IMG/VR virus record: IMGVR_UViG_2721755711_000001
Length of the DNA stretch: 46,733 nt
Strand: one strand, 5' to 3'
From: a virus
Taxonomy: Duplodnaviria; Heunggongvirae; Uroviricota; Caudoviricetes
Part shown: piece by piece, positions 21,989 to 23,320 of the stretch
Numbering within the stretch: the stretch's first letter is position 1
Layout of the letters: the number at the start of each line of letters is the position of its first letter
The notes under the pieces: model-generated
Database searches by the model: none
Told to the model about the DNA's origin: nothing
What the model saw: only the letters and a program-made list of their open reading frames with translations
Position numbers and translations under genes: made by a program

Positions 21989-22206
21989 TTCAGTGATGAT
22001 ATACGTTGTATATTTCTGATACAGATGTATACACATATTTAAAACTGAACACCAAATATATTTTTGATGTCTGAAAAACTGTCGTTAGTATTCTGACTGG
22101 TCCGGAAGGTGGTTGTCTTTATGTTCACAGGGGTGTTGCTTGCCACCGGAAAGACCAGTGCTGGCTTTCCTGGTAATTCGTGTGATTCCGGAAGCCAGCA
22201 CAGTAT

Positions 22207-22281
22207 GCGGGTATCGTATAATGGCTATTACCTCAGCTTTCCAGGCTGATGATGCGGGTTCGATTCCCGCCACCCGCTCTC
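22207..22281 (+). tRNA. tRNA-Gly (anticodon UCC), left-arm copy, slightly degenerate
   Basis: Cloverleaf readable by eye: acceptor GCGGGTA, T-arm GCGGG-TTCGATT-CCCGC, anticodon loop TTTCCAG; A7-C66 mismatch; 3' end reads CTC, not CCA. Confidence 0.55.
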
Positions 22282-23166
22282 CAGTAAAACTGATGAGTCA
22301 TAGCTTTATTATCAGCACTGGCGAATTTTCGTGAAGAATCTGGTTGCGGACACTTTATTTTCTTCATTCTGTAATGCCTGGCCGGTTACAGTTTCAGTGC
22401 TGTGTTTTTTACATTGTTAATGGTATGCGTTATCAGAATGAGTCGTCGCCTGTACCGGGGCCTACGATTCGTCAGAATTGCGGTTGCAGGTTGACGACTC
22501 ATTCTGATACCGATAATTCGATACAAGTAATCCTGCTTAACTCTTACATGATGAATGCGTTAGCCCGTCTCCTGACGGGCATTTTTTTATCCATACACAG
22601 GGTTCGTACCGGCGGACCTTTTTCACATCTGTGTCCTGTACACACCACATCAGAAAACACCAGATAACACCACACAAAAGGTATCTGCGGGTGCCTTTGA
22701 CGGGGTGTTTTTTTTAAAAAAACACCCCATCAAAGGCACCCGCAGATGCCTTTTGTGTGGTGTTATCTGGTGTTTTCTGGTGTGGTGTGTGCAGGACACA
22801 GATGTGAAAAAGGTCCGCTGGTACGAACCCTGTATATGGATAAAAAAATGCCCGTCAGGAGACGGGCCAGAGCATTCATCGTGTAGTAATAGAATTATAT
22901 TTATATATGGTCGCCACCAGAATGAGTCGTCAACCTACAAAGCCACCCTGGCTTACTGTACGTGTGCGCATGGAACAGGTAACGACTCATTCTGCTAACG
23001 ACGTTTACAAGTAATAATCACATACCATTATGTAATACAAAAAAAGCAGCACTGAAACTGTAACCGTTCAGATATTACAGCATGAAGAAAAACAATAGTA
23101 CCTACAAAGCTGTTCTCCGCGAAAATTCGCCAGTGCTGATAAAGCTATGCCTCGTTTGTTTTACAA

Positions 23167-23241
23167 GAGAGCGGGTAGCGGGAATCGAACCCGCATCATC
23201 AGCTTGGAAGGCTGAGATAATAACCATTATACGATACCCGC
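23167..23241 (-). tRNA. tRNA-Gly (anticodon UCC), glyT-like
   Basis: Minus strand GCGGGTATCGTATAATGG...CTTCCAA...GCGGGTTCGATTCCCGCTACCCGC; perfect acceptor stem; closely resembles E. coli glyT as recalled; 3' CTC instead of CCA. Confidence 0.7.
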
Positions 23242-23244
23242 ATA

Positions 23245-23320
23245 TGGTGCCGACTACCGGAATCGAACTGGTGACCTACTGATTACAAGTCAGTTGCTTT
23301 GCCTGCTGAGCTAAGTCGGC
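23245..23320 (-). tRNA. tRNA-Thr (anticodon UGU)
   Basis: Minus strand GCCGACTTAGCTCAGCAGG...ACTGACTTGTAATCAGT...CCAGTTCGATTCCGGTAGTCGGCACCA; encoded CCA; 3 nt from tRNA-Gly. Confidence 0.7.

Follow-up and report, generated by a model that had tools for sequence, protein, structure and literature searches.

A large imperfect palindrome at the apparent head-to-head junction of two lambdoid prophage late leaders

The IMG/VR virus record IMGVR_UViG_2721755711_000001 is a stretch of 46,733 nucleotides (nt) assigned to the Caudoviricetes. We refer to this whole stretch as the window. It contains a large imperfect palindrome, centred at position 22715, in which the late leaders of two defective prophages of an E. 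coli chromosome meet head to head. The left arm belongs to a remnant of an mlrA/yehV-type lambdoid prophage (prophage A), the right arm to a fragment of a Rac-like prophage (prophage B). Each arm matches its own prophage type up to the centre, both prophages are broken at the same nucleotide, the arms overlap by two nucleotides, and the join was found in no other sequence. We consider it probable that the junction is a genuine chromosomal scar, that is, an illegitimate inverted end-join of the late leaders of two prophages; its in vivo origin and the route of the join are what we infer.

The two prophage fragments and their palindromic leaders

The features of the locus, from left to right, are as follows.

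6365..22716, plus strand: prophage A remnant (mlrA/yehV-type lambdoid), with early region, replication genes, Q, morons and late leader
18416..18799, plus strand: antiterminator Q of prophage A (PF06530 on the identical 127-aa product in loci L008-L013; "antiterminator Q family" in EC11)
18980..20086, minus strand: OmpC-like porin moron (PF00267, Porin_1; ompC in EC11)
20430..20600, plus strand: conserved leader-start block of A, a hairpin with a T-run followed by a TCGACA -35-like element
20942..21988, plus strand: N6/N4 DNA methyltransferase inside the A late leader (PF01555; annotated as DNA-methyltransferase)
22207..22279, plus strand: tRNA-Gly(UCC) of the left arm (ARAGORN; Rfam tRNA, 54.3 bits)
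22428..22512, plus strand: long-stem hairpin of the left arm, 20-nt stems and 45-nt loop (repeat search)
22563..22590, plus strand: predicted intrinsic terminator of the left leader (hairpin 22563-22580), GCCCGTC-TCCT-GACGGGC followed by T7
22545..22714, plus strand: left inner palindrome arm, with A-type alleles and T8 at its end
22716..22885, minus strand: right inner palindrome arm, B-type except for the alleles at 22729 and 22748, otherwise known from C-type (DUF3927-holin) leaders
22840..22867, minus strand: predicted intrinsic terminator of the right leader (hairpin 22867-22850), same sequence as the left one
22910..23002, minus strand: long-stem hairpin of the right arm (repeat search)
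23169..23241, minus strand: tRNA-Gly(UCC) of the right arm (ARAGORN; Rfam)
23245..23320, minus strand: tRNA-Thr(UGU), right arm only (ARAGORN; Rfam)
23805..23975, minus strand: conserved leader-start block of B, just downstream of the B Q-like gene
24040..24582, minus strand: DUF1133 Q-like antiterminator of prophage B (PF06576 and a faint PF06530 on relatives)
24579..24869, minus strand: YbcO/DUF1364 protein (PF07102)
24869..25480, minus strand: DUF1367 (YbcN-like) protein (PF07105)
22715..28057, minus strand: prophage B fragment (Rac-like), 5.3 kb, with leader, tRNAs, Q-like gene, ybcO, ybcN-like gene, hok, DUF7167 and others
28058..28462, minus strand: 405-nt terminal remnant of an IS2-like element (IS3 family), its inner end joined to prophage B and its terminus abutting island DNA

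The palindrome was detected both by a repeat search and by a self-BLAST of the window. In the repeat search the inner arms are 170 nt long each, 94% complementary and 1 nt apart, and they are accompanied by outer mirrored blocks such as 22184-22314/23134-23264 (86%) and 22358-22415/23034-23091 (84%). Self-BLAST gave a single palindromic alignment that runs from 22184 to 23264 (1,117 columns, 79% identity, 72 gap positions). When the central 341 nt were folded as single-stranded DNA, they formed one almost unbroken hairpin with a 3-nt loop (-200.3 kcal/mol, z = -39.7), compared with -56 kcal/mol (z = -2.5) for the corresponding native sequence of a relative. The inverted repeat of two late-leader arms, which the first-pass annotation of the window had pointed out, is thus present and exceeds chance by far. 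The limits given there, 22090 and 23320, have to be corrected: the symmetry stops at 22184 and 23264, and it stops short of 23320 because the tRNA-Thr has no counterpart on the left. The arms had also been estimated to be 85-90% identical with a nearly perfect core of about 140 bp. Measured by zone, they are 93.5% identical over the inner 170 nt, 61.5% over the next 130 nt and 77% further out, and they differ from each other at 9, 16 and 35 columns from the centre. The arms are longer than about 100 bp, have little or no spacer and form a hairpin, as SbcCD substrates do, and we expect from this analysis that the palindrome would be an SbcCD target.

When Rfam was run in E-value mode, precursors of plant and animal microRNA families (MIR447, mir-2004 and others) were reported at 22610-22820. 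These were rejected as false positives below the gathering thresholds (97.8 bits against 200 for MIR447, 39 against 100 for another family); such sub-threshold matches arise because a long hairpin matches these families generically.

A tRNA-Gly(UCC) and a stem-loop had been described on each arm, and both were recovered, the former by ARAGORN and Rfam and the latter by the repeat search. The three tRNAs of the two leaders score 54-65 bits against the RF00005 gathering score of 29, and each has a cloverleaf and its anticodon. In the long-stem hairpins (stems of about 20 bp, loops of 45-51 nt) it is the stems, and not the loops, that are conserved between phage types; each hairpin may form a structured RNA or mark a site of processing downstream of the tRNA. 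Both predicted terminators lie about 135 nt before the centre. The leader-start blocks of A (20430-20600) and B (23975-23805, minus strand) are 82% identical and are, judged by sequence, candidate pR'/qut regions. The B block contains a promoter-like site, TCGACA-16-CAAAAT with a TG, at 23860-23833. The late promoter and the terminators of the leaders are predictions from consensus matches.

Window positions 6225-22716 are 100.000% identical, over 16,492 nt and without a gap, to the scaffold BICR01000031.1 (L031; GCA_005399705.1) from its first base on, and this scaffold runs on from the leader into holin genes. Another member of the clone, JXUH01000171.1, differs at one position over 14.4 kb. 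Homology to the intact mlrA-integrated prophage L028 begins at 6365, and prophage A is 93-97% identical to EC11. Its order is early genes, DnaB-type helicase, Q, porin (minus strand), leader-start block, methyltransferase, tRNA-Gly and terminators. The genes flanking the palindrome on the left had been described as reading rightward, which is correct for Q and the methyltransferase but not for the porin at 18980-20086. This moron sits between Q and the late leader, and its transcription opposes that of the late operon. Intact A-type relatives adjoin mlrA/yehV and carry an integrase; in the window, as in its clone, prophage A is truncated on the left, beside an element of the IS3 family of insertion sequences (IS). 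Positions 1-6364 of the window are a decayed island and not the usual mlrA flank, with a TssE pseudogene, an Ail/Lom-family protein, a 3'-5' exonuclease, a VENN-motif toxin fragment and a piece of an IS3-family element of about 1 kb (5382-6364). Since the usual flank is missing, prophage A has therefore been displaced or truncated on that side too.

On the other side of the centre, positions 22715-28057 are 99.925% identical over 5,344 nt to the Rac-like prophage L027 (GCA_014889175.1) and 99.55% identical to PapRG-04-4; the intact prophage in L027 likewise runs on into a holin gene. Read leftward, the fragment contains the genes for DUF1367/YbcN-like, YbcO and DUF1133 Q-like proteins, the leader-start block, tRNA-Thr, tRNA-Gly and the terminators. 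The leftward ybcN-like, ybcO-like and Q-like genes of the earlier description were thus confirmed by their Pfam domains (DUF1367, YbcO and DUF1133). The Q-like protein carries a private change in the window, I24F, which is due to a non-synonymous single nucleotide polymorphism at 24513.

These sequence matches show that the arms come from two lambdoid prophages of different type, one for each arm, with 99.9-100% identity up to the centre. This agrees with the earlier view that the palindrome is not a simple recent duplication. It had further been suspected that gene conversion had homogenised the core. To this we can oppose the similarity between intact copies in unrelated genomes: an intact A (L013) and intact B copies (L027, L026) are 94.7, 61.5 and 77.0% identical in the three zones, and the arms of the window 93.5, 61.5 and 77.0%. 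In the innermost 35-70 nt the window arms are 91-94% alike, compared with 97% for intact A and B. Because the profile of the intact copies equals that of the window arms, the conserved core predates the fusion, and homogenisation of the core after the fusion is refuted.

The join at nucleotide level

The centre (22708-22722) reads T8A7, and the arms share the TA at 22715-22716. The A sequence continues through 22716 (T8 and the following A), and the B sequence begins at 22715, with the complement of the A that follows T7. The native copies read GTG-T8-A/CGGGCC for the A type and GTG-T7-A/CGGGCC for the closest B type, where the slash marks the break; T8A7 is present in neither parent. Both copies are broken at the same nucleotide (T-run-A/CGGGCC), 41 nt before the holin start codon and at the foot of a small terminator hairpin, GGGCC-GACAGA-GGCCC-T6. 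The overlap of the arms, TA, is a self-complementary dinucleotide.

In all 22 intact A- and B-type copies that were compared, the leader continues as ...GACGGGGTG-T7/8-ACGGGCCGACAGAGGCCC-T6... and is followed by holin, endolysin and terminase genes, with Phage_holin_8 beginning 41 nt past the break position. A comparison of synteny with genomes carrying either prophage had been proposed as a check, and it shows the native continuation in every copy. The arms are thus lambdoid late leaders by their surroundings, with a Q-type gene immediately upstream on either arm and intact copies that run into holin and endolysin genes. No holin, endolysin, terminase or structural genes were found in either prophage fragment of the window. 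Two statements of the first-pass annotation are borne out here, namely that two late leaders converge where the lysis genes would begin (in intact relatives the holin ATG follows 41 nt after the break position) and that neither copy has retained lysis or structural genes.

The break lies inside continuous homology between A and B, which are about 95% identical in the 170 nt before it and 99% identical in the 500 nt after it. The sole heterology nearby is the length difference between T8 and T7. The join has the properties of an illegitimate junction of the microhomology type (A-EJ or template-switch class): it creates a new adjacency, the overlap amounts to 2 nt, there is no homology in the joined orientation, and the joined sequence is absent from both parents. 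A chimera ligated at a restriction site was rejected, as the native break sites contain no palindromic restriction site; the TTTAAA at the centre arises from the join itself.

Two of the four differences between the right arm and L027 lie within 33 nt of the centre (about 2e-4 by chance), which raised the question of mutagenesis or error-prone repair linked to the junction, or of selection in favour of asymmetry. This candidate was rejected. The alleles at 22729 and 22748 are absent from the 22 intact A- and B-type copies, but they occur together in an exact 44-nt match in C-type prophages (SE11, WAT), in the spacer between DUF3927 and holin, and are inherited mosaicism. More generally, the last 45 nt or so of the A and B leaders (22723-22766, mirrored at 22664-22707) correspond to the DUF3927-holin spacer of this third prophage type (SE11, WAT, EC11). 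The shared spacer contains a 7-bp stem, AAAGGCA/TGCCTTT, which is perfect only with the allele of the window's right arm.

The junction was searched for in several collections. None of 5,426 complete E. coli genomes covers the centre, and every match ends at 22714-22716. The exact junction is absent from the GTDB species representatives, and a relaxed pattern that allowed for homopolymer slippage returned no more than two unrelated terminator hairpins from GTDB and metagenome contigs. No record spanning the centre was found in IMG/VR, in a phage collection or in a plasmid collection, and the junction is in none of the 40 fetched loci. The exact proteins of the open reading frames that cross the centre and position 28057, as well as the I24F form of the DUF1133 protein, are not on record in the public assembly index. 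A literature search found no description of a palindromic prophage junction.

Possible origins of the junction

The outer boundary of the prophage B fragment has a bearing on this question. At 28057/28058, intergenic DNA of B (...CCAGAAA) gives way to IS2-like sequence (CATACTCC...) from within orfA, 21 nt before its stop codon. There is no microhomology at this second joint, which is illegitimate and was found in this window only. At 28461-28462 the IS terminus (...GGGGCCGATTCA) abuts island DNA, which starts here 577 nt later than it does in all relatives (52F4, L036-L039). We also considered that repeats had been omitted here between stitched contigs. This was ruled out: the missing 577 nt are single-copy and lie beside a true IS terminus, and for these two reasons the gap is an ordinary IS-adjacent deletion. 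The remainder of the window is island DNA, with fragments of a type VI secretion system, Ail/Lom, exonuclease and VENN-toxin genes on the left and an EAL protein, a PapB fragment and a CP4-type island with Ag43/Cah on the right. The second illegitimate joint and the IS-adjacent deletion show that the locus has decayed in its own right, through IS-mediated and illegitimate events, and was not pieced together from contigs that end in repeats.

For several reasons we favour an origin of the junction in vivo and regard it as probably, though not assuredly, a genuine scar. A TA overlap is typical of microhomology joins, the arms are natural and separately sourced up to the join, and the same fragment bears both a second illegitimate joint and a genuine IS-adjacent deletion. 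The sequence is of good quality: over 16.5 kb it shows 0 differences from a relative that is based on Illumina data. Since neither parent contains T8A7, a path through a de Bruijn or string graph cannot create it, and it must therefore exist in the reads.

The symmetry of the breaks calls for a mechanism, since breaks placed at random in two prophages would not fall at the same position. In the route that we prefer, an illegitimate inverted join would first have occurred within the lysis cassette, which is 99% identical between A and B, and would have produced a long, near-perfect palindrome that should be lethal in the presence of SbcCD, or else very unstable. A symmetric central deletion ("centre revision") would then have used the mirror-image TA at the first heterology, T8 against T7, and would have left the present imperfect palindrome. 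Such a deletion would be symmetric because short self-complementary motifs in a palindrome are direct repeats at mirror positions. Alternatively, in a single step, both copies could have been cut at a common fragile or target site next to the terminator hairpin and the two left-hand ends mis-joined; in a variant of this, a Holliday junction in the 99%-identical cassette would have stalled at the T8/T7 indel and been mis-resolved. On this reading the distal parts of both prophages (holin, endolysin, terminase, head and tail genes) and anything between them would have been lost from the locus.

Several points weigh against a genuine scar. The junction is a singleton across all collections and is known from a single assembled sequence, and in the closest relative the native junction is intact. 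With its 3-nt loop and a folding energy of -200 kcal/mol, a palindrome of 341 bp should impose a cost on an sbcCD+ cell. The break also falls where unique sequence passes into a multi-copy repeat, a place at which assemblers break contigs. Furthermore, the two-step mechanism is our reconstruction: slippage stimulated by a hairpin normally takes place at the outer base of the stem, and a microhomology of 2 nt is weak.

An error in assembly or finishing is the alternative that has to be taken most seriously, even if we think it unlikely. Both prophages continue into shared lysis cassettes, and their unique segments could have been joined, one of them reversed, with the repeat omitted. The break lies exactly where A- and B-specific sequence, with T8 against T7 as the last difference, gives way to the tract of 500 nt that is 99% identical. 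In the closest relative about 182 N are found inside the holin gene, 292 nt past the break position (L013 12054-12240; BICR01000031.1, GCA_005399705.1), and since the scaffold is gapped there, the lysis cassette is evidently multi-copy in that lineage. Concatenation of "...GTG-T8" with the reverse complement of "...GTG-T7" would give T8A7, the join is a singleton in all collections, and E. coli tolerates long near-perfect palindromes poorly (PMC4245961). However, graph assemblers retain the k-1 nt that are shared at the ends of unitigs, and their graphs contain no edge by which an "in" branch could be followed by the reverse complement of another. At its other end the prophage B fragment meets IS sequence internally and not at an IS or repeat boundary, and omitted repeats fail to explain the window's other discontinuities, as the stretch of 577 nt lost at 28462 is single-copy. 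In an otherwise error-free sequence, a pair of independent misjoins at a distance of 5.3 kb is unlikely. The first-pass annotation had cautioned that a fold-back chimera must be excluded. For a fold-back of a single molecule this has been achieved, since the alleles proper to each arm persist up to 9-16 nt from the centre; for a misjoin of two loci the caution stands.

It is a rather improbable proposition that a wild E. coli stably carries the 341-bp palindrome as a result of an unrecognised site- or structure-directed process of breakage and mis-joining at the pre-holin TA, with an SbcCD-sensitive structure surviving; examples would be a Holliday junction that stalled at the T8/T7 indel or a nuclease that leaves TA overhangs of 2 nt. 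In a site-directed double cleavage, to which we attach very little weight, a sequence- or structure-specific enzyme (a nuclease, a serine-recombinase-like activity or a topoisomerase) would have cut both copies at TA, leaving self-complementary 3' overhangs of 2 nt, and the left halves would have been ligated. The reciprocal holin-to-holin palindrome, GGGCCTCTGTCGGCCCG-TA-CGGGCCGACAGAGGCCC, might then exist elsewhere in the genome, and the outcome would be an inversion and not a deletion. Such a double cleavage would account for breakpoints that are identical to the nucleotide in two loci; the palindromic dinucleotide overlap removes the polarity of a staggered 2-nt cut, and in both copies the break adjoins a hairpin-forming terminator. 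Against it speak the lack of a recombinase-type dyad-symmetric binding site around the TA, the fact that the junction never recurs in thousands of genomes with the same site, and the failure to identify a candidate enzyme in the window.

Two further explanations have next to no probability. That a single leader was duplicated in inverted orientation by a fold-back (U-turn), whether in vivo or within a chimeric read, and later diverged or underwent gene conversion, fits the overall palindromic layout, but the arms match two prophage types in other genomes at 99.9-100%, differ in their T-runs (T8 and T7) and again 16 and 35 columns away from the centre, carry the tRNA-Thr on the right only and the methyltransferase on the left, and have the similarity profile of intact A and B. 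A replication U-turn in A followed by a homologous crossover into B was rejected as well, since the inner right arm should then carry A-type alleles, and it does not. Homologous inversions between prophages are common, and Iguchi et al. (2006, Gene 372:199) reportedly described large inversions in E. coli O157:H7 that arose by homologous recombination between prophages. A RecA-mediated inversion of this kind between oppositely oriented prophages, which is what the inter-prophage inversion or recombination of the earlier annotation would mean in the usual homologous sense, would suit leaders that are 95-99% identical around the break, but exchange between inverted copies yields colinear hybrids with a leader followed by holin and never a head-to-head product, whereas in the window a leader is followed by a reversed leader, without a lysis gene and with a 2-nt TA overlap.

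Related systems and small-scale variation

From the anatomy of the locus we would conclude that both prophages are locked here in a cryptic state, without lysis and morphogenesis genes. They retain their Q-type antiterminators, the morons (porin, methyltransferase, hok and a RelE/ParE-type pair) and three tRNA genes. The two Q-controlled late leaders would now be convergent, each being stopped by its own predicted terminator before the centre. In these respects the remnants resemble the cryptic lambdoid prophages of E. coli K-12 (DLP12, Rac and Qin), which are bounded by IS elements and have retained morons and genes of the Q/ybcN/ybcO type: they are defective, keep the same kinds of genes and have IS at their bounds. 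They differ in that the K-12 prophages are truncated colinearly and the remnants of the window are fused head to head. We know of no K-12 cryptic prophage that is fused head to head with a second prophage at an identical nucleotide.

As in the prophage inversions of O157:H7, two lambdoid prophages of one chromosome interact and share late-region modules. Unlike the RecA-type colinear hybrids formed there, the join in the window is head-to-head and illegitimate, has a 2-nt overlap and is accompanied by deletion of the late regions. A further comparison is offered by the tandem-inversion-duplication (TID) junctions that Kugelberg et al. reportedly described in Salmonella (2010, Genetics). With TID and U-turn junctions the palindrome shares the inverted join, the very short microhomology and an unstable symmetric precursor that is expected to be trimmed; in those cases the arms come from one locus, whereas here they come from two prophages and have kept their own alleles. 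U-turn-like inversions arise by template switching at short inverted microhomology and are remodelled by deletion (PMC4417113).

Long chromosomal palindromes have been engineered in the Leach laboratory. Interrupted palindromes of 246 and 480 bp are cleaved by SbcCD in each replication cycle and repaired, and a perfect one of 460 bp is lethal (PMC3315005, PMC4245961). That imperfect or interrupted palindromes are survivable and a perfect one is lethal fits a perfect precursor that was trimmed and an imperfect product that persists. The palindrome of the window is similar to these constructs (PMC3315005, PMC4245961) in its size class, chromosomal site and predicted hairpin, and in the SbcCD cleavage and RecBCD/RecA repair that are to be expected. 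It is unlike them in being natural and imperfect (93.5%), in its origin from two non-identical prophages, and in having a 3-nt loop with essentially no spacer.

The junction is a single scar and not a system, and the kinds of structure to which it would belong, namely scars of prophage decay and rearrangement and long chromosomal palindromes, are known. If the scar is genuine, it would be a natural example of a long palindrome in the E. coli chromosome, which has hitherto been studied almost only with engineered constructs, and a natural substrate with which to determine how much palindrome imperfection is tolerated by SbcCD-proficient cells. It would also mean that illegitimate inverted joining, in addition to homologous exchange, reshapes genomes with several prophages, and that a single event can strip two prophages of their lysis and morphogenesis modules while sparing Q-controlled tRNAs and morons. 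If it is an artefact, a misjoin of paralogous prophages at a repeat boundary can mimic a precise biological palindrome.

Variation in the length of short repeats was observed at two places. Just upstream of the break, a 10-nt unit, ACCAGAAAAC (window about 22646-22670 and its mirror), is present in 1-4 copies among B-type prophages and forms a small variable number tandem repeat, which is located around 12090-12130 in L019, L021, L023 and L025. Further out in prophage B, between hok and a CCDC90-like gene, a G8 tract (26366-26373) is of different length in each of the B-type relatives that were compared (L026, L027 and L024); this is either a homopolymer length polymorphism or sequencing noise.

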